From the IMG/VR virus record IMGVR_UViG_3300017989_005288: a stretch of 64,000 nucleotides of DNA; one strand, given 5' to 3'. Position numbers and translations under genes: made by a program. The notes under the pieces are model-generated. The model worked only from the letters and a program-made list of their open reading frames with translations. It ran no database searches and was not told the DNA's origin. Position 1 is the first letter of the stretch. Every line of letters begins with the position of its first letter. This DNA is from a virus. Shown one piece after another: positions 630 through 9,061 of the stretch.

Positions 630-929
630 TCAATCATCAAAGTCATCCGCACAATGATCAGAATAATTATAGGCTTCTGGAGGAACACAAATTGCTTTCA
701 AAAAACTCAACATGTCAAAATTGTCCATTGACGTATGACCCTCTATGCATATTTCATCTTCCTCAATTGGCCACCATTCTCCATCAAAATCTCCTTCCCA
801 ACGCAAAAATTCTTTTGCATAATACAAATGGTCTCTAATTGCGTCCAGCTGCCAATTGCTTATCTTTCCTTTCTCAACAACAAAGGAAGCCGAACTTGAA
901 TTAGAAACAAAACCTGATCGTAGTTTCAT
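630..929 (-). CDS. FVSNSSS-motif family protein
   Basis: N-terminus MKLRSGFVSNSSSASFVV. Confidence 0.85.
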   Translation of the reverse strand: MKLRSGFVSNSSSASFVVEKGKISNWQLDAIRDHLYYAKEFLRWEGDFDGEWWPIEEDEICIEGHTSMDNFDMLSFLKAICVPPEAYNYSDHCADDFDD

Positions 930-1198
930 TCGTCTTCGTAAAACGTATAGGCACGTTTTGGCAACCCAATCATCTGAAAAAATTGGAGCATCTCATCATT
1001 ATCCATCATCGTAAGGCCAATAATTTCCTTTTCTCTCACTATGATATCCCAATAATCACCAAAATCTATACGCAAAAATTCCTTTGAATACTTTTGATAA
1101 TTCTTGATTGCATCTTCTTGCCATAGCGAAAGAAATCTTCTCTTCACAACAAAAGAACCAGAACTTGAATTCGAAACAAACCCAAACCTAATCTTCAT
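926..1198 (-). CDS. FVSNSSS-motif family protein
   Basis: Start reassigned to ATG 1198 (MKIRFGFVSNSSSGSFVV); full-length similarity to 630..929. Confidence 0.85.
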   Translation of the reverse strand: MKIRFGFVSNSSSGSFVVKRRFLSLWQEDAIKNYQKYSKEFLRIDFGDYWDIIVREKEIIGLTMMDNDEMLQFFQMIGLPKRAYTFYEDE

Positions 1199-1631
1199 CG
1201 GTATAATCCAACAGCGACTCTCCGGTATCAATATCACAATATGACCCAAAACGTTCTATTTGCTCTTGCGTTGCTTCGACCCTTTCTTTGCAATCGTAAG
1301 AGCAATTCTTATTGCGTTCCAAACACCCACATGGAGTATCCCATCTATTTTTCCATTGATCTTGAGAGTAACGCATCCATCTCGCACACTTCTTTCGGAG
1401 CGCATCTTCCAATTCCTCTGCAACATAATGCACATGAAACTTCTTTGCAAATGCTTGAAACATCTCCTCGTCAACTTCCAATTCCTTACACCGGTCTTTT
1501 GTACGCGCAAGTATTTCATCATAGATTTGCATAATGCTATCAGGAGCATTTAGCTTCTTCAAACGAGTCCACCTAATCTCGCGTAGAAAACGTTTTCGAC
1601 AAACCTCAAGTTGCTCTGCTGTCAATTTCAA
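1188..1631 (-). CDS. hypothetical protein (Cys-containing C-terminus)
   Basis: ORF coupled to both neighbours. Confidence 0.7.
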   Translation of the reverse strand: MKLTAEQLEVCRKRFLREIRWTRLKKLNAPDSIMQIYDEILARTKDRCKELEVDEEMFQAFAKKFHVHYVAEELEDALRKKCARWMRYSQDQWKNRWDTPCGCLERNKNCSYDCKERVEATQEQIERFGSYCDIDTGESLLDYTDED

Positions 1632-2143
1632 TGGTGACTCACTTTCACATGAAACAAGTTATCAAATGTTCCCCCATGTTCCATTACACATCCAAAATCC
1701 CCGTCATCATCCCCATAAGTGAAACTGAAAAAATCCAATCCGGGATGCTCATGAAGCAGCTTGGCAGCAATGTCAGCCCCTCGTTTTGCAAGTTCAAGTT
1801 CATATTGATCCCAAGCTACACTATCAAGAGCAACACCTTCTTTCGAATCTCTCTTGAAATCGTCAAGATCAAATTCTCTTGGAAACCCGTCCCACACATC
1901 TGCATGCTCCAGCTCTTTTGCCATTTCACTTTCTGTCAATGGTTTAGTTTTCTGAAAATCATTCCAAACTTGTGCAGCAATAGCTTCCGTGCTTGCTTGC
2001 TTATCATAAATCTCTTGCACTTTTTGATTTCCAAACAGCATTTTTTGCATTTCCTTAACTGATCTTGGAAACTTGCCTCTTGAAAAGCCAACAATGAATG
2101 CACTGGATGAACTATTGCTAACAAATCCGAATCGAAGTTTCAT
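1628..2143 (-). CDS. FVSNSSS-motif family protein
   Basis: Start at ATG 2143 (TAATG overlap): MKLRFGFVSNSSSSAFIV. Confidence 0.85.
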   Translation of the reverse strand: MKLRFGFVSNSSSSAFIVGFSRGKFPRSVKEMQKMLFGNQKVQEIYDKQASTEAIAAQVWNDFQKTKPLTESEMAKELEHADVWDGFPREFDLDDFKRDSKEGVALDSVAWDQYELELAKRGADIAAKLLHEHPGLDFFSFTYGDDDGDFGCVMEHGGTFDNLFHVKVSHH

Positions 2144-2553
2144 TAGCTCAATCCCCACTCAAAAAGTTCGCTCACTCTACCAGACTCTTTCACAACTTTC
2201 CGAACCGTCTCTTGCCATAAATTCATTGCATCATAGGCATTCATCTGCTCACTATATTCACCGTCAGGCCGTGGTAGTTTACCTCCAGAAGGCTCTTCAC
2301 CGTCGTCAACATACTTACCATCCAAAGTGTGGTCAAACTCGTAAAAAGTATATGAATCTCCTCCCTGCGTATCCATATCACCCATATAGACAACTTGACG
2401 ACCAAGTAATACCGTTTCGCTCAACAGCTCTTTCATACAATCTTGAGCGTATTGCGGCAACTTCTTCATCACCTCGTCGTTGAGTTCCTTTACAACCACG
2501 GTGATAAAACAGGACGAACTGCTGTTTGAAACAAATCCCATACGCAATTTCAT
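2143..2553 (-). CDS. FVSNSSS-motif family protein
   Basis: MKLRMGFVSNSSSSCFIT. Confidence 0.85.
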   Translation of the reverse strand: MKLRMGFVSNSSSSCFITVVVKELNDEVMKKLPQYAQDCMKELLSETVLLGRQVVYMGDMDTQGGDSYTFYEFDHTLDGKYVDDGEEPSGGKLPRPDGEYSEQMNAYDAMNLWQETVRKVVKESGRVSELFEWGLS

Positions 2554-2563
2554 TGCATGCTCC

Positions 2564-2902
2564 TTACCAATCTGTTTCGTGAGTTAACACATCACCAGAT
2601 TTCGCAAAATCGTCAAACTTTTTACAAAAGACATCCCATGCATCCCAAGGCCCTTCTATTTCATCTGGAGGCTCACAATCAACTTCAATACCCTCCCAAA
2701 CATCTGAACCCGCATCATGCCATACGGAAACCGTAACAACATCTTTACCCAAAAACTTCTTTTGTACAAACCCCAACTCCTTGACAACTGCTGTCACGTA
2801 AGGATGAACAGCTCCCATTACTTTGTCAAAAACTTCTTTTGTCGTAATCACAACAAAGCTGGATGAACTGGAATTGCTCACAAACCCATTTCTGATTTTC
2901 AT
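2564..2902 (-). CDS. FVSNSSS-motif family protein
   Basis: MKIRNGFVSNSSSSSFVV. Confidence 0.85.
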   Translation of the reverse strand: MKIRNGFVSNSSSSSFVVITTKEVFDKVMGAVHPYVTAVVKELGFVQKKFLGKDVVTVSVWHDAGSDVWEGIEVDCEPPDEIEGPWDAWDVFCKKFDDFAKSGDVLTHETDW

Positions 2903-2914
2903 AGTATGACCCTC

Positions 2915-3226
2915 TCAAAATACTGTTACATGCTTCCCAAACACTTTGTCCGCAAAATTCCTGTTGCTCCACCACACACTCCAATTGTCAACGTCTTCCA
3001 AGCTCTTTTCCGACCCAAGATAGGCAGGGCCGTTTTTGTAGTTCCAGACACAAAGCGTCGCACCCGATTCTTTGTCCTGCACACACCACGACGCATCCAC
3101 TTTCGTTTTGTCGTCTTTGACATTTGGCTCACCAAGCAACTCAACAATGTCGCTGTAGTGCAATCCGTTAACTGAACCCATTCTGTGACTGCCCATTGAT
3201 TCTGTTTGTTCAATAAATTTAAGCAT
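2915..3226 (-). CDS. hypothetical protein
   Basis: Start reassigned to ATG 3226, preceded by GGAGG. Confidence 0.7.
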   Translation of the reverse strand: MLKFIEQTESMGSHRMGSVNGLHYSDIVELLGEPNVKDDKTKVDASWCVQDKESGATLCVWNYKNGPAYLGSEKSLEDVDNWSVWWSNRNFADKVFGKHVTVF

Positions 3227-3560
3227 TTTCGTCCTCCTCGAAGGCTTCTTTGATTTCTTCCCAAGAGTAGTAATGGTCATTGATATAGATTCCGGTTTGG
3301 TTCTCCTCAACATAATCGAGCAATGCCCCAACTCGCTCTGTTACGTTGTTTCTGGCCATCCTGATCACGCTAATAGCAAACCGTTTTGGGTCAGCATCCA
3401 AATGTTTTGCCAATTCCTCTTTCGGTCCAAAAACACAATAGTCTCCATCATAATCATCAAATATTCTAAACCCGTAATTCTTCTTATCCTTCTCGTCAGC
3501 AACAAGATTGTTGTCCAAATCAATGAATCGACAAAACTGAATAACAAGCCTGTTGCTCAT
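3219..3560 (-). CDS. hypothetical protein
   Basis: Coupled ORF. Confidence 0.7.
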   Translation of the reverse strand: MSNRLVIQFCRFIDLDNNLVADEKDKKNYGFRIFDDYDGDYCVFGPKEELAKHLDADPKRFAISVIRMARNNVTERVGALLDYVEENQTGIYINDHYYSWEEIKEAFEEDENA

Positions 3561-3856
3561 GATTCATCCCTGACCACAAAGGCTTCACTGTATATACCTA
3601 ACCACTTGAAAAAATTCTCAGTGTCGCCATTATCACAATCAATTTGACCTGTAATCGTGGGAAAGTCATCTACCACGTCACTCCACTCATCATGAAAAAC
3701 GCCTGTTTCTTTCATCCACTTTGATTTGAAACCATGCTCTTTTGCATATTCTGCATGATTCATTATGGCTCGTCTTTGACGTTCATTGATAAGCGGTATC
3801 CAAACAATAAAGGAAGCCGCACTGCTGTTAGAGACAAAACCTGTTCTTGTTTTCAT
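3557..3856 (-). CDS. FVSNSSS-motif family protein
   Basis: MKTRTGFVSNSSAASFIV; similar along its length to 630..929. Confidence 0.85.
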   Translation of the reverse strand: MKTRTGFVSNSSAASFIVWIPLINERQRRAIMNHAEYAKEHGFKSKWMKETGVFHDEWSDVVDDFPTITGQIDCDNGDTENFFKWLGIYSEAFVVRDES

Positions 3857-4128
3857 AACCCCTCTCTGTTTTTGCGTCTTGTTTCTGCTGCTTTCTGAGC
3901 AATCTTACTCATATAATCAGGACCACGCTCTTTACACATTGTTTCGTGTGCTTTGTCTGCCGCATTTTTCGCGTAATCCTTTCCGTACTTCTTCCGCATC
4001 GTCTTGTGCGCCTTCTTTGCAGCTTCTTTTGCATAGTCCTTTCCGTACTTCTTCTTCATTGTTTTGTGTGCTTTCTTTACAGCTTCAGAACGAATTTTTT
4101 TCAATTCATTTTCCTTTTTTGTTGCCAT
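3853..4128 (-). CDS. basic hydrophilic repeat protein, KGG/GsiB-like
   Basis: GGAGGG then ATG 4128; three 20-aa repeats KKAHKTMKKKYGKDYAKEAA. Confidence 0.7.
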   Translation of the reverse strand: MATKKENELKKIRSEAVKKAHKTMKKKYGKDYAKEAAKKAHKTMRKKYGKDYAKNAADKAHETMCKERGPDYMSKIAQKAAETRRKNREGL

Positions 4129-4834
4129 TGTTCCCTCCCTTTCGATTGTAAAAGAGGATCGTTCCCATTTTTGTAGCAGAATGGCTACCTTTCCCATCGT
4201 ATTGATAATAATGACTATGCATTTTCCAATTTCCAAACTGAAAAGCAAACTGTGCTTGCTCTGATTTTTCAACAGCTTTCAAGATAGCCGTTACCGGAAC
4301 ACTCCTCCCGTGCGCAGTCAAAACAAAATTCCCAACTATCAAAAGGTCTTCCCATCTTTTTTCCGTAGCCATTCGCAAAATACGAGGGAAATAATCAATA
4401 AACGTTTCTGGAAAATGAATACTGTCATAACAAATAACAGCTGGTTTGAAGTTTGGTCCACAGCTTAGCTCACTAAGAATTCTCAAAAAATCTCCACAAC
4501 GCCAATGAAAGCTACCATGTACACTTTTGTTGATTTCATGAATCTCCGAGTTCCCTTCGATTCCATAAAACTGACTTTGAAAGATAAACCCTTCTTTGAG
4601 CAACTGATCTGGTTCACATCCTTCACGAAGTTGCCCTGCTTTTTGTGCCTCTGGTTCATAACCACACTTTGCACAAAGTGTCACATACGACTGTTCCAAA
4701 GGGATATAAAAGCGGTTAAAAACCTGCCGATAAAAGTTAACAACCGTGTCTTGCCTCCATTGCCTTTTCTTTTGACAATGAGCGAAGTCACTTCGTGACT
4801 TTTCGAGTATCGTTCTAAGATGCCCGCGTTTCAT
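4106..4834 (-). CDS. hypothetical protein (possible degenerate Rossmann/methyltransferase-like fold)
   Basis: 242-aa ORF coupled to the helicase; the fold suggestion is weak. Confidence 0.55.
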   Translation of the reverse strand: MKRGHLRTILEKSRSDFAHCQKKRQWRQDTVVNFYRQVFNRFYIPLEQSYVTLCAKCGYEPEAQKAGQLREGCEPDQLLKEGFIFQSQFYGIEGNSEIHEINKSVHGSFHWRCGDFLRILSELSCGPNFKPAVICYDSIHFPETFIDYFPRILRMATEKRWEDLLIVGNFVLTAHGRSVPVTAILKAVEKSEQAQFAFQFGNWKMHSHYYQYDGKGSHSATKMGTILFYNRKGGNNGNKKGK

Positions 4835-7800
4835 GCTGGTCTTTCCTTACCAAAAAAGTCATACCAACTAATCCAACCCTCTAATTTTTGCGGCTCACAC
4901 TGCCAACCATATTGCTTTCTCTTTTTCTTGAACTCTGCAAAACTTTTAATTCCTTTACTTTGAACCTCTTTTTTCAACTCATCAAGTGTCAATTGTCTTG
5001 TCTTCTTCTTTCCAAGAAAGTCATACCAACTAACCCAACCTTTTTGTTTATCTGGATTAGAAGTCCAGCCATATTTCTTCCCTTTTTCACGATACTCTTT
5101 GGAGGTTTTAATTCCTTTACTTTGAACCTCTTTTTCCAACTCATCAAGTGTTAATTGTCTTGACTTCTTCTTCTTTCCAAGAAAGTCATACCAACTAACC
5201 CAACCTTTTAGTCCGCATAGATTAGAGGTCCAGCCATATTTCTTCCCTTTTTCACGATACTCTTTGGAGGTTTTAATTCCTTTACTTTGAACCTCTTTTT
5301 CCAATTCATCAAGTGTTAATTGTCTTGACTTCTTCTTTCCAAGAAAGTCATACCAACTAACCCAACCTTTTAGTCTACCTGGCATTGGAGTCCAGCCATA
5401 TTGCTTCCTTTTTTCGCGATACTTTTTGCCACTCCTAATTCCTTTGCTTTGAACCTCTTTTTTCAATTCATCAAGTGTCAATTGTCTTGTCTTCTTCTTT
5501 CCAAGAAAGTCATACCAACTAATCCAACCCTTCAAGTTGTGTGGCATTGAAGTCCAACCATATTGCTTCCTTTTTCTATGATACTCTTTGGAGGTTTTAA
5601 TTCCTTTACTTTGAACCTCTTTTTTCAATTCATCAAGTGTTAATTGTCTTAGTCTTGACTTCTTCTTTCCAAGAAAGTCATACCAACTAATCCAACCTTC
5701 TAATTTTTGCGGCATTGGTATCCAATTATGTTGCTCCCTTTTTCCATGATACTCTCTTTGACTTTTAATTCCTTTACTTTGAACCTCTTTTTTCAACTCA
5801 TCAAGTGTCAATTGTCTTAGTCTTGACTTCTTCTTTCCAAGAAAGTCATACCAACTAATCCAACCCTTCAAGTTGTGTGGCGCATATGTCCAACCATATT
5901 GCTTCCTTTTTCCATGATACTCTCTTTGACTTTTAATTCTTTTACTTTGAACCTCTTTTTTCAACTCATCAAGTGTTAATTGTCTTAGTCTTGACTTCTT
6001 CTTTCCAAGAAAGTCATACCAACTAATCCAACCCTTCAAGTTGTGTGGCGCATATGTCCAACCATATTGCTCCCTTTTTTCAAGATACTCTTTGCCACCC
6101 CTAATTCTTTTGCTTTGAACCTCTTTCTTCAATTCATCAAGTGTTAGTTTTCTTGACGTTAAAATCCAACATTTTTCTTTCAACTCTCTCCAAGTCTTAG
6201 TCCCAATCATAGGAGAAATATATCGTCTCAAGAAATCAGATGGGTCACATTTCTCTTCAAGCAAACCCAAATCAATTTCGCTCGTATCAACCCAATTCCT
6301 CGGCGGTAAAATGTGGTGCCCGAACATTACCTTCAAAGAAGCAATCATCTCCTCACAATGGTCTTTATCCTTCACACTTGCAACCAACTGTCTATTAGCT
6401 AATTTTTCAAACACTTTCCATTTCTTTTGTTTACTACCTTTATCAGGCATCTCCCTGATCAAATCATGCAAAATCTGAAGCTTCACATCGACAGAACTAC
6501 TTCCAAAATAATCAAACCATCGATCTCTGTCATTCTTCATACGCTTCACTTTACCCGTCTTTTTGCATCTGATTTTTACCAGTTTCGGTGGAAAGAAAAA
6601 CTCACTTATTGCCATTACAATAAGAATGCCCTTCAAATAGGAATTCAAACCTTCTCGTAATTTTCCCTTGTCCCAGTTTGAATACCCGACAACAGAAGGC
6701 AACAAATGATAAACAGCAGCATGGCTTTTCTTAGGATAATCACGAAGAGGACGACCCGCCATTTGAGCAACAAATGTGCATGACGAATGATTTCCAATAA
6801 TAATTTCCCGCGCCAATGGGACGTAATCAACACCTTCTACAAAACGTCGCAATGCAATAATAACATCTACATTGGGATTTTTTGACTTCCCACTCTTACG
6901 GATATAAATAGTCTTTTTTGCAATTGCGCGTTGGCTGCCTACAACAAGTTGATAGATTCGTCGCTTACGCCCTTTGATTTGCAACGTGTAGTATGGTTGC
7001 GTTTTCGACTCTTTTCCAATTTCAAACCGCTTGTCGGGATTCATCGCCCTAATCAACTTCTCAATCTCCTCGCGCTTCTTTTGAGAGCTTTCTCCACAAA
7101 CATCAGAGGACAAATAAACAACAGTCGGTTCAAACTTGTTTTTGAAAACACTTGTTATACCATCCAAACAATCATCTCTGTCGCAGATCAAAAAGTCATA
7201 GCTGAACGTTTTGAGCATTCGAACGCTTTTGCCTTTACTGTTTTTCTCAGTCATATAGTCAGCCATTGAAACAGTATGCGTAGTAAACTGTTCTTCATAC
7301 TCACGTTCAATTATACTATGATAATCACCTCGCATGTAAGTGCCAGTTGCCAACCCTACACGTTTTTTGTTATCCAAAAACCATTTCACCACTTTTCCAA
7401 GCTCGTTCGGTTCAGCTTCTCCGAATTCATACTCTGTCCATCTCAAGTGGTGTGTTTCATCAATCCAAAGTCCTACCTTACCAAAAAATCGTTGTTTCTG
7501 TCTTGATGTAAGCCGCTTGAAAAATTGTGCAAGAGTTTGGTGACTACAAATCTGAATCCTATCGCTTACGGAACTGCCTGCTCTTTCAAGAAACAAACGT
7601 AAATGATTGACAGTATTAAATCTGAAATTTGTTTCCGGTATGAAAAATATCTCTTTGCCATTCACCCTGACGTGGACCCTTTCATTGTAATTATCACCAA
7701 TAGCAATTTGAGGAACCGCCACAATTACCTTGTCAACAAGATTACGCGTTATATCGGAATGAGCGAGGAGAAGCATCAAAAGGGTTTTTCCGGAACCCAT

Positions 7801-7950
7801 CGGTGCTTTCATCAACCTCAAAGTAGCATCCAACAGTTTTTCAAACCCAGCTTGTTGATGCTGACGAAAATCATATGGCTTTGTCGGAACACAACAAAAA
7901 CTTCTATCAGCTTTTGTCCATCGGTTGTTGATAATTGTTACTTTTTTCAT
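4831..7950 (-). CDS. SF2 (DExH) helicase/ATPase with eight C-terminal integrase-repeat-like units
   Basis: Walker A APMGSGKT, motif II DETH, motif III ATGT, motif V EGVD, motif VI QMAGRPLR; C-terminal tandem repeats. Confidence 0.85.
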   Translation of the reverse strand: MKKVTIINNRWTKADRSFCCVPTKPYDFRQHQQAGFEKLLDATLRLMKAPMGSGKTLLMLLLAHSDITRNLVDKVIVAVPQIAIGDNYNERVHVRVNGKEIFFIPETNFRFNTVNHLRLFLERAGSSVSDRIQICSHQTLAQFFKRLTSRQKQRFFGKVGLWIDETHHLRWTEYEFGEAEPNELGKVVKWFLDNKKRVGLATGTYMRGDYHSIIEREYEEQFTTHTVSMADYMTEKNSKGKSVRMLKTFSYDFLICDRDDCLDGITSVFKNKFEPTVVYLSSDVCGESSQKKREEIEKLIRAMNPDKRFEIGKESKTQPYYTLQIKGRKRRIYQLVVGSQRAIAKKTIYIRKSGKSKNPNVDVIIALRRFVEGVDYVPLAREIIIGNHSSCTFVAQMAGRPLRDYPKKSHAAVYHLLPSVVGYSNWDKGKLREGLNSYLKGILIVMAISEFFFPPKLVKIRCKKTGKVKRMKNDRDRWFDYFGSSSVDVKLQILHDLIREMPDKGSKQKKWKVFEKLANRQLVASVKDKDHCEEMIASLKVMFGHHILPPRNWVDTSEIDLGLLEEKCDPSDFLRRYISPMIGTKTWRELKEKCWILTSRKLTLDELKKEVQSKRIRGGKEYLEKREQYGWTYAPHNLKGWISWYDFLGKKKSRLRQLTLDELKKEVQSKRIKSQREYHGKRKQYGWTYAPHNLKGWISWYDFLGKKKSRLRQLTLDELKKEVQSKGIKSQREYHGKREQHNWIPMPQKLEGWISWYDFLGKKKSRLRQLTLDELKKEVQSKGIKTSKEYHRKRKQYGWTSMPHNLKGWISWYDFLGKKKTRQLTLDELKKEVQSKGIRSGKKYREKRKQYGWTPMPGRLKGWVSWYDFLGKKKSRQLTLDELEKEVQSKGIKTSKEYREKGKKYGWTSNLCGLKGWVSWYDFLGKKKKSRQLTLDELEKEVQSKGIKTSKEYREKGKKYGWTSNPDKQKGWVSWYDFLGKKKTRQLTLDELKKEVQSKGIKSFAEFKKKRKQYGWQCEPQKLEGWISWYDFFGKERPA
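4840..6147 (-). repeat. eight in-frame coding tandem repeats of ~53-56 aa (~162-168 bp)
   Basis: Unit LTLDELKKEVQSKGIK..EY..KRKQYGW...P..LKGW(I/V)SWYDFLGKK counted 8 times; resembles the phage-integrase repeat unit (PF14882-like). Confidence 0.9.
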
Positions 7951-7951
7951 G

Positions 7952-9061
7952 CTACTCCCTGTCCAAATCGTAGGTCACACACTTACGACAACCATTCACT
8001 TGTGTCGCAAGCACTCTCTCACGAAACTTCTTAACTGCTGGACTATACCAAACATCCTCAAGAAAATCACCAGCATCAAGAACATTCACACACTCAACAT
8101 TTGACTCATCTTCCGAAAATGAACAATGCCAAAACTCACCTTTGACATTGATATACCCACTAAATAAGCTCGATTCACACGATTCACTCATCATGATAAG
8201 CAGCTTCTGGTGTTCCCAACTCAAATCCCCTCTCTTGACAGCATGTTCGAATTTCGGAGCTGAACACGAATCAAAACCAAACCGCAATTTGTTCTTGAAA
8301 CAGTAATCAACCAGCGAATGATATTGCTCGTTAGTCAACGAATGGAACCCATCCTTTGCCCTGCCTTTTGGCTTTACACCAAGAAAAACTACAGCATTAA
8401 GTTTTTCCAGACGTGAGTCAGTTTTCACATCTCGTAAAACCTCATAAACAAAATCAAGCGTTTCCTGACTCACCATCAAATGTATGTTGGTTTGCACTAC
8501 GCCTCGATCAGTGAACATTTTGACCGTATTGTAGCCTATGTCTTTGCCTGTGTTATACACACTAACCGCAAGACCACCAACCAACTTAGCAATTTGGTTC
8601 GCCAATTTCTCTGTGAGGTCAATACCGGTAAGTGTGAAATTCGGAATTATGCCATTAGCACGACATAGCTTTAACATCCGAATGAAATCTGGATTGGTTT
8701 GAACCCCTGTAATCCCAAATGCAATTTGAGTAAGCGTTTTGGGCATCTTATACAGGATCATGCAGAACTGTTCAAATGTCATGTTGGTTGGCGGAGTATT
8801 GGAATTCTGCTTGTAGCACCAGGGACAAGCATTAGGACATCCATTCACGGAAATTTCTAAGTCAAGAATTTCTGGTCCAATCGGACTGAACAACGGGTCT
8901 TCATCCCTGGTTCTTCCCCAGCGCATAAAGACGCCAGTGCTTTTCTCGAAAATGTACTTGTAGCTGTCCGACCAAACAGTTTTGACTTTGTCGTCTTCCT
9001 TTACGACAAACTCCTCGCCATTGACATGGTACTTTGCTTCAGTCGATTTTTTCTTAGCCAC
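7952..9061 (-). CDS. radical SAM protein with SPASM/twitch-like C-terminus
   Basis: CPNACPWC triad; C-terminal CES...GEFWHCSF...CRKC. Confidence 0.9.
   Translation of the reverse strand: MAKKKSTEAKYHVNGEEFVVKEDDKVKTVWSDSYKYIFEKSTGVFMRWGRTRDEDPLFSPIGPEILDLEISVNGCPNACPWCYKQNSNTPPTNMTFEQFCMILYKMPKTLTQIAFGITGVQTNPDFIRMLKLCRANGIIPNFTLTGIDLTEKLANQIAKLVGGLAVSVYNTGKDIGYNTVKMFTDRGVVQTNIHLMVSQETLDFVYEVLRDVKTDSRLEKLNAVVFLGVKPKGRAKDGFHSLTNEQYHSLVDYCFKNKLRFGFDSCSAPKFEHAVKRGDLSWEHQKLLIMMSESCESSLFSGYINVKGEFWHCSFSEDESNVECVNVLDAGDFLEDVWYSPAVKKFRERVLATQVNGCRKCVTYDLDRE

Follow-up and report, generated by a model that had tools for sequence, protein, structure and literature searches.

A phage SF2 helicase with a mosaic tail of eight INT_rpt-like repeats and an adjacent partner of predicted methyltransferase fold

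The 64,000-nucleotide stretch of the virus record IMGVR_UViG_3300017989_005288 (IMG/VR), called here the window, belongs to a contig of an uncultured phage and carries on its minus strand two overlapping genes, P0001, a predicted superfamily 2 (SF2) helicase ending in eight tandem repeats, and P0002, its neighbour of 242 residues. Our study assigns the repeat to the Pfam family INT_rpt (PF14882), describes two variable patches that recur across this family, and points to a module made of a helicase motor and a protein of predicted methyltransferase fold, with an exchangeable repeat tail. We favor, with reasonable but far from full confidence, a model in which the basic tail ties translocase and enzyme, as a pair, to nucleic acid, the exposed patches serve as weakly constrained contacts, and duplication and gene conversion keep the scaffold of the repeats uniform. 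The elements of the module are as follows, with the means by which each was delimited, A7 being the alignment of the helicase family and AF2 standing for AlphaFold2.

4831-7950, minus strand: gene P0001, 1039 residues, SF2 DExH helicase with INT_rpt tail (open reading frame list, translation, Pfam ResIII)
7882-7932, minus strand: N-terminal peptide, residues 7-23 (INNRWTKADRSFCCVPT), predicted dock of the partner (interface residues of the complex model)
6571-7872, minus strand: motor core, residues 27-460 (translation, A7 alignment, PDB profile search)
6154-6570, minus strand: family-specific region leading from motor to tail, residues 461-599 (inside the family profile, profile positions 3-594)
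4834-6153, minus strand: array of eight INT_rpt-like units, residues 600-1039 (Tandem Repeats Finder, hhalign, AF2)
5986-6153, minus strand: unit 1
5818-5985, minus strand: unit 2
5650-5817, minus strand: unit 3
5488-5649, minus strand: unit 4
5326-5487, minus strand: unit 5
5161-5325, minus strand: unit 6
4999-5160, minus strand: unit 7
4834-4998, minus strand: unit 8
5737-6071, minus strand: two tandem copies of a 167-nt segment, 5905-6071 and 5737-5903 (array self-comparison at an offset of 168)
4106-4834, minus strand: partner gene P0002, 242 residues, predicted class I (Rossmann-like) methyltransferase fold (AF2, Foldseek, VIA)

Judged by its sequence, P0001 is an SF2 helicase of the ResIII/DExH type with a complete set of motifs, for which translocation or unwinding is predicted. 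This agrees with a preliminary description of the same DNA, made from the letters alone: Pfam ResIII matches at 30 bits, above its cut-off of 22.5, and the motor motifs are all intact (Walker A APMGSGKT, motif II DETHH, motif III TGT, motif VI QMAGRPLRD, and a family-specific RGD). In A7, the columns G54, K55, D164, E165, H167, H168, T202, R207, G208, and D209 are invariant and Q396, G399, R400, and R403 nearly so. The helicase profile finds MDA5/LGP2, XPB/Rad25, LlaBIII/LlaGI, and UvsW as its nearest matches in the PDB (E 2e-7 to 2e-4). The nearest helicases, at 27-30% identity over the motor, share the architecture and bear two to five canonical INT_rpt units, and a truncated homologue (L001) reaches 40% identity over the N-terminus. 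The region of residues 461-599 has no Pfam match, and scans against the sequence families of Pfam and NCBIfam found no nuclease domain on P0001.

Tandem Repeats Finder reports a single array at 4846-6155, with a period of 168, 8.0 copies, and 86% matches. The units are 54-56 residues long and start at residues 600, 656, 712, 768, 822, 876, 931, and 985, with the open reading frame unbroken across all eight. Within a unit core of 159 nt (53 codons), we defined window 1 as codons 18-25 and window 2 as codons 33-40, of 24 nt each. All unit strings quoted in the preliminary description are present in the translated units: in window 1, KSQREYHG (units 2 and 3), KTSKEYRE (units 6 and 7), and RSGKKYRE (unit 5); in window 2, TYAPHNLK (units 1 and 2), IPMPQKLE (unit 3), TSNPDKQK (unit 7), and TPMPGRLK (unit 5), with PQKLE shared by units 3 and 8 and PHNLK by units 1, 2, and 4. 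The concentration of variation in two short windows, also claimed there, proved correct, since 40 of the 64 segregating nucleotides fall within the 48 nt of the two windows (hypergeometric p = 2e-13), and the C-terminal scaffold (codons 41-53) shows 0-1 differences among units 1-7. By this count, the array carries hypervariable residues at fixed places of a near-identical repeat, as is expected of a TALE-like (transcription activator-like effector) code. Among 153 arrays of the family, that of P0001 is the second most self-similar (mean identity 0.75 versus a median of 0.48), and because it is among the most self-similar it separates a fixed scaffold from two varying patches, which makes it a favorable object for functional study of INT_rpt.

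The preliminary description had likened these repeats to those on integrases, and profile-profile comparison places them in INT_rpt. PF14882 itself gives no match to P0001, to its tail, or to single units even at E<=10. The related helicase P0007 reaches it (31.9 versus a cut-off of 26.5 bits), and hhalign, run between the eight units and 16 canonical ones from related helicases, yields 97.6% with E 3.7e-12 over 49 columns, a match for which we regard the units as a shortened INT_rpt subtype. Searched with a profile that includes the canonical units, the eight units score independent E-values of 1e-17 to 1e-21, figures that are partly circular because the profile contains these very units, and an Atlas feature search groups the tail with INT_rpt clusters. 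The canonical unit reads F-S-[FY]-E-E-A-[KR]-x-F-V-...-L-G-L-K-S-x-x-E-W-...-I-P-x-x-P-x-x-x-Y-...-G-W-x-x-W-x-D-[FW]-L-G; the units of P0001 are ~3 residues shorter, lack the conserved Tyr of the P..P...Y loop, and carry LTLDEL where others have FEEA. A kinship with ExoI_C, raised by an Atlas lead and faint Pfam marks, was rejected (hhalign of INT_rpt against E. coli exonuclease I, 0.13%), and the Pfam matches of the tail to Fur_reg_FbpA, UPF0175, PTS_2-RNA, and others were discarded because they are short and the eight repeated units inflate them.

Tails made of INT_rpt units occur very widely. Among 1.84 billion representatives searched with a profile, 9,205 clusters matched at E<=1e-3 and 2,676 at E<=1e-30; the longest arrays reach 17 units, and many of these tails sit on helicases or nucleases from phages and ultra-small bacteria. 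The design of a helicase with an INT_rpt tail is thus already known, common, and ordinary: SF2 helicases with 6-12 C-terminal units account for ~30 of the best 150 arrays, and both Patescibacteria and phages commonly encode helicases with such tails (PF14882, named "Integrase repeat unit" and earlier PHINT_rpt). Like P0001, they consist of a ResIII/DExH motor followed by 4-12 tandem units of ~55 residues (...EA..FV..LGLKS..EW...P..P...Y..GW..W.DFLG), and their most variable positions within an array coincide with those of P0001. Unlike them, P0001 is phage-borne and paired with a methyltransferase-fold subunit, and its units are unusually alike and basic.

Across 149 other arrays of at least six units, per-column variability within the array correlates with that of P0001 (Spearman 0.44, p 1e-3), with shared peaks at the x positions of L-K-S-x-x-E-W-x-x-Y and of I-P-x-x-P-x-x-x-Y. 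An independent array of high identity, array B of locus L012 (a 194-kb contig), belongs to the same subtype as P0001 (LTL..LKK...WISW.DLFG); its proportions of nonsynonymous (pN) and synonymous (pS) differences are 0.31 and 0.36 in the windows and 0.075 and 0.25 in the scaffold. From these alignments, the two variable patches appear to be a trait of INT_rpt arrays generally, which is a new observation.

An AF2 model of units 2-4, built from an alignment of 62 three-unit segments, has a mean pLDDT of 93.1 with linker blocks at 80-88, and a pTM of 0.55. Each modeled unit comprises helix 1 (positions 5-14), helix 2 (20-30), a 3-10 turn (36-38), and a short helix (45-48). Window 1 would correspond to the N-cap and the first two turns of helix 2, and window 2 to a proline loop preceding the GW motif. 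The variable positions 20, 21, 24, and 25 form a stripe of spacing i, i+1, i+4, i+5, with the conserved E22, Y23, and K26 on the opposite side, and from this helix-2 periodicity we infer that the window residues are exposed; on this ground, positions 19-21, 24, and 25 on the outer side of helix 2 and positions 34, 35, 37, and 38 in the proline loop look solvent-exposed. Among solved structures, a sequence profile of the unit found no relative below E 0.48, and because no match is significant the fold of the unit gives no functional clue.

By analogy with its relatives, the tail most likely binds nucleic acid in a multivalent manner, as suggested by the fusions to nucleic-acid enzymes and by its charge. 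Pfam domains on the best 53 arrays include Helicase_C (13), ResIII (9), and Mrr_cat_2 (9), with single GIY-YIG, NUMOD-like, and SNF2 matches. The tail of P0001 has a net charge of +62 and a pI of 10.1 and is among the most basic arrays, 95% of the 153 family arrays being net positive. The same evidence bears on the alternative that the tail binds a target other than nucleic acid (a phage or host protein, or the surface of a compartment) and that the variable patches are protein contacts. Arrays of small helical repeats often mediate protein contacts, and no solved DNA-binding fold matches the unit; however, the recurrent fusions to helicases and Mrr nucleases (13, 9, and 9 of 53), the single GIY-YIG and NUMOD-like ones, and the positive charge of the tail and of nearly all arrays speak against such a role, which we regard as rather unlikely.

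The units have recombined, as the preliminary description had proposed. Units 2 and 3 agree in every nucleotide of window 1 and differ at 12 of 24 nt in window 2; units 1 and 2, in turn, agree fully in window 2 and differ at 9 of 24 nt in window 1. A test of the pairwise homoplasy index (PHI) type gave 0.23 against a permuted mean of 0.42, a value as low being reached in none of 5000 permutations (p<2e-4); incompatibility was found for 284 of the 703 informative-site pairs and grows with distance. The two tandem 167-nt copies differ by 2 mismatches, include an exact match of 94 nt, and have their junction between window 1 and window 2, so that we read this repeat as the product of a single recent duplication, one unit long and out of register with the unit borders, which made unit 2 a hybrid of window 1 of unit 3 and window 2 of unit 1. 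Units 6 and 7 are near-duplicates; of the 9 nucleotides at which they differ, 8 lie in an 18-nt part of window 2. Units 3 and 8 match exactly in the N-terminal scaffold, share half of window 2, and have nothing else in common.

Counted by the Nei-Gojobori method, divergence among the units was distributed as follows.

Two windows: pS 0.61, pN 0.35, dN/dS (ratio of nonsynonymous to synonymous substitution rates) 0.37
Scaffold: pS 0.18, pN 0.03, dN/dS 0.16
Nine most variable codons: pS 0.42, pN 0.49, pN/pS 1.17
Other 44 codons: pS 0.32, pN 0.065, pN/pS 0.20

The windows are thus older at synonymous sites too: the scaffold is undergoing homogenization, which spares the windows. A selection on the windows, for which the preliminary description had looked to per-site dN/dS, does not emerge from these values, the ratio in the windows being 0.37, below 1, and synonymous sites there being strongly diverged as well. 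The ratio of 1.17 in the nine most variable codons is biased upward because these codons were picked after the fact for varying; in them, codon position 2 is the most diverse (0.60 versus 0.43 at position 3). The sequences fit near-neutral change at exposed positions alongside a scaffold that evolves in concert, with a hint of weak diversifying selection on the windows to which the cluster of changes between units 6 and 7 points. The preliminary description had held burial or neutral evolution of the variable residues to be damaging to its reading; burial is not what we find, as the positions look exposed, and near-neutrality is compatible with the data. We propose that duplications one unit long, of which at least one was out of register, would multiply the units and yield the mosaic, and that short gene-conversion tracts would homogenize the scaffold and halt at the diverged windows. 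Ordinary tandem duplication and gene conversion explain the mosaic, and the "shuffling" evoked earlier calls for no dedicated mechanism.

The strong clustering of substitutions (p = 2e-13), and in particular the 8 changes within 18 nt between units 6 and 7, could also be taken as the trace of targeted hypermutation, i.e., of a diversity-generating retroelement or similar system writing the windows. No unit-like DNA that could serve as a template repeat was found outside the array in the 64-kb window (no search for a reverse transcriptase was made), and the substitutions are of all types and not adenine-specific, for which reasons a retroelement mechanism is disfavored. Moreover, the sequence recurs with 0-1 differences in four public runs, which come from three studies. 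We hardly believe in such a mechanism here.

These runs, from sediment and seawater, also bear on the reality of the array. The read-level check used their Logan contigs, which reproduce pieces of the array and its flanks with 0-1 differences and in which no sequence variants were seen. For units 4, 5, and 6, both windows lie inside single independent contigs, and because of this coverage we take the combinations of windows within a unit to be real. All contigs break inside the array and none spans it whole in the 4 runs, so that the eight-unit copy number and the order of units come from the original metagenome assembly alone. Such breaks, together with scaffold stretches of up to 94 nt exactly repeated, are what a short-read assembly artefact through a tandem repeat, producing the mosaic or the copy number, could leave behind; the match of independent contigs, covering both windows of three units, and the intact reading frame make this very improbable.

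The array invites a comparison with transcription activator-like effectors, pentatricopeptide repeat (PPR) proteins, and Pumilio, with which it shares a near-invariant scaffold, few fixed variable positions, and concerted evolution of the repeats. Each unit could be imagined to read a base or a short DNA word through its two windows, in a TALE/PPR-like code, with shuffling retargeting the helicase and its partner. Hypervariable positions fixed on a near-invariant scaffold, the variation of the same columns in other arrays, the pN/pS of 1.17 with its most diverse codon position 2, the near-restriction of the unit 6/7 differences to window 2 with mostly amino-acid changes, and the recombination of the units would all suit a programmable reader of this kind. 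On the other side, the value of 1.17 carries the bias of codon choice, dN/dS over the whole windows is 0.37 and not >1, and synonymous sites are highly diverged; the pTM of 0.55 and the weaker linkers suggest beads on a string rather than a rigid solenoid tracking DNA; the mosaic of units 1-3 needs just one out-of-register duplication; the INT_rpt tail is swapped for three other repeat types in relatives, which a generic tether fits better; and there are no close relatives in which retargeting could show. Unlike in TALE, PPR, and Pumilio proteins, reading of one base per unit is unsupported and a rigid superhelix is not predicted with confidence; PPR10 matches the unit model only at a Foldseek E of 1.2, and there is no structural similarity. 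The "sequence-reading" array of the preliminary description therefore finds no support, the units being modeled with confidence (pLDDT 93) and their mutual arrangement uncertainly (pTM 0.55), and we judge a programmable reader to be improbable. Slightly more improbable still is the extended form of this idea, in which INT_rpt units in general are modular readers acting through the helix-2 face and the proline loop, the eight "programmed" units direct a translocase-bound methyltransferase, and specificity is re-sorted by duplication and conversion; if true, it would provide a function for ~9,000 clusters and possibly a new programmable binding scaffold.

The second gene of the module, P0002, has no Pfam, PHROG, or NCBIfam match. 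A profile search found 22 homologues, eight family members have no Pfam match, and no match to the family was found in IMG/VR. Its AF2 model is of moderate confidence (pLDDT 71.5, pTM 0.76), and the PDB matches that Foldseek listed are class I methyltransferases in 50 of 50 cases, with E from 1e-4. VIA gives Z-scores of 10.4-9.0 to RlmCD, PH1915, METT-10/METTL16, RsmD, and RlmM (for RlmCD, Z 10.4, root mean square deviation 3.8, 174 aligned residues), and an independent Atlas model reaches a TM of 0.54-0.62 to Methyltransf_11/25 clusters and of 0.69 to a viral cluster that comprises 483 unnamed proteins. The family that P0002 represents is uncatalogued, and these models give it the fold of class I methyltransferases. 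Conserved among its members are an acidic residue following strand 2 (G-[IV]-[ED]) and the invariant residues D137, N169, and Y212; at the motif IV position, which contains D137, the sequence is [NC][YC]D...[FM]P. The (D/N)PP(Y/F) motif, an N6_Mtase match, and a recognizable target-recognition domain were sought in P0002 and not found. Methyltransferase activity is plausible on the basis of the modeled fold.

A partner role for this 242-residue gene, suggested by the preliminary description, is supported by its genomic position and by a model of the complex. A P0002-family gene lies directly beside a helicase of the P0001 family in 11 of 11 loci with readable DNA, the helicase being usually upstream with overlapping stop and start, and downstream in three loci; in the window, the stop codon of P0001 (4831-4833) overlaps the ATG of P0002 (ATGA). 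A complex of residues 1-600 of the helicase with P0002 scores an ipSAE of 0.71 (runs 0.77, 0.01, and 0.71) against 0.00 for the best of 3 controls. The mark for this complex score is reached by 58 of 80 solved complexes and by 2 of 110 mismatched pairs, and the runs have at least 53% of contacts in common with a partner pLDDT of at least 74. In the modeled interface, residues 7-23 and 89-130 of the helicase face residues 181-213 of P0002, including the invariant Y212, and the Trp of the 7-23 peptide is conserved in the consensus of A7. The modeling supports physical binding of P0001 and P0002.

INT_rpt units are found on the helicase itself in five partner-bearing loci (the window with 8 units, L002 with 2, L004 with 5, L007 with 4, and L015 with 7) and in separate open reading frames in L012 and L014. 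In L014, four units lie further downstream. In L012, the arrays are placed between the genes of helicase and partner, in the open reading frames 3196-4080 and 4059-4931, which have four units each and a similar head of ~65 residues (...RYTKEQ...WWR.TPERW.W...), an arrangement that is either a split tail or a frameshifted tail. Other members of the family carry different repeats at this place, for which reason the repeat tail can be seen as an exchangeable module. One undescribed repeat of ~60 residues, ENKKxLLxMA...G...YDxxFDxxIRxxRPxWF, is present in at least nine copies in L010 (1047-4703) and in five in P0005, and a repeat of the ENKKxLLxMA type occurs in the middle of the tail in L002 (8001-11027). 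Another undescribed one, also of ~60 residues, NNGGILPSxxWLxxNGxxWL...KxPxKFxHI, is found in L013 (2954-6004). HA repeats (PF03457) form the tail of the partner-less members P0008 and P0009; these belong to the same helicase family, with HA in the place of INT_rpt, HA and INT_rpt being separate Pfam families. Immediately upstream of the helicase, two loci have genes of the homing-endonuclease type (LAGLIDADG_2 in L004, 290-1366; a faint GIY-YIG in L013, 2150-2863).

In the model that we propose, two phage genes form a module to which P0001 would contribute the motor subunit, driven by ATP. The first ~25 residues of the helicase and its surface of residues 89-130 would dock the methyltransferase-fold protein P0002. 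The C-terminal 440 residues would form a basic string of eight three-helix modules joined by Lys/Arg-rich linkers, probably flexible, which would most likely hold or load the motor-enzyme pair on its substrate, the patches of the windows offering exposed and weakly constrained contact surfaces.

Several observations weigh against this model. The literature searched gives no functional, binding, or enzymatic data on INT_rpt proteins, PF14882/INT_rpt appearing in lists only (the Gamma-Mobile-Trio paper contains nothing on the INT_rpt repeat), and the units of P0001 miss the Pfam INT_rpt model when searched directly. Foldseek of the unit model returns nothing below E 1.2, and the best VIA-wide hit has a Z of 3.8, to small helical domains and at noise level. 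Between units 6 and 7, 7 of the 8 clustered changes alter the amino acid, a poor fit to neutral duplication and drift. As to the partner, loci L003 and L005 carry a helicase of the same family with no adjacent partner, and one of the three complex runs scored 0.01. Finally, the GxGxG motif I after strand 1 is absent in the P0002 family, where Y-x-T-L-C-[AG] is followed by a low-confidence loop, and because this Gly-rich S-adenosylmethionine loop is missing, P0002 is possibly not an active methyltransferase.

Among known systems, the module resembles Type III (Res-Mod) and Type ISP restriction enzymes in placing an SF2 motor of the ResIII type beside the gene of a methyltransferase-fold protein, and the helicase profile weakly matches LlaBIII (E 7e-5) and LlaGI (E 9e-5). 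Unlike in Type III Res, no nuclease domain was detected in P0001 by the Pfam and NCBIfam scans; unlike Type III Mod, P0002 shows no N6_Mtase match, (D/N)PP(Y/F) motif, or target-recognition domain; and, unlike restriction-modification systems, the P0001-P0002 module sits in a phage and not in a defense island. The module would be a new two-gene unit of large uncultured phages, in which the partner is predicted to clamp the N-terminus of the helicase. It could be a translocating nucleic-acid-modifying enzyme, with a bearing on the protection of the phage genome or on RNA handling.

In the window, every gene lies on the minus strand, the GC content is ~41%, and the tRNA count is 0. No close relative was found in the phage collection (megablast gave no match; the best tblastn match has 26% identity), in IMG/VR, or, with P0001 as query, in metagenome contigs. 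Directly upstream of the helicase, a radical SAM/SPASM enzyme is encoded at 7952-9061 on the minus strand (phrog_7293, 3.4e-85; Radical_SAM and SPASM weak); because it is absent beside the helicase in related loci, we place it outside the conserved module. A nucleotidyl transferase of the sugar-1-phosphate type at 10232-10990, minus strand (Pfam NTP_transferase, 2.2e-58), would fit a sugar-nucleotide pathway in the phage. At least seven small proteins encoded on both sides of the helicase module share an N-terminal or near-N-terminal tag, MK[ILV]R.GFVSNSS[SAG][SA][SCA]F[IV][IV], and the helicase-partner pair sits midway within this gene set, whose members are listed below.

9054-9443, minus strand: tag-bearing small protein
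3557-3856, minus strand: tag-bearing small protein
2564-2902, minus strand: tag-bearing small protein
2143-2553, minus strand: tag-bearing small protein
1628-2158, minus strand: tag-bearing small protein
926-1249, minus strand: tag-bearing small protein
630-929, minus strand: tag-bearing small protein

At 77-589, also on the minus strand, a protein of 170 residues contains ...AHKGQTRKYNGEAYISHPLRVA...LHDVLEDS..., which by eye we take to resemble a HD domain of the RelA/SpoT type (ppGpp hydrolase-like).

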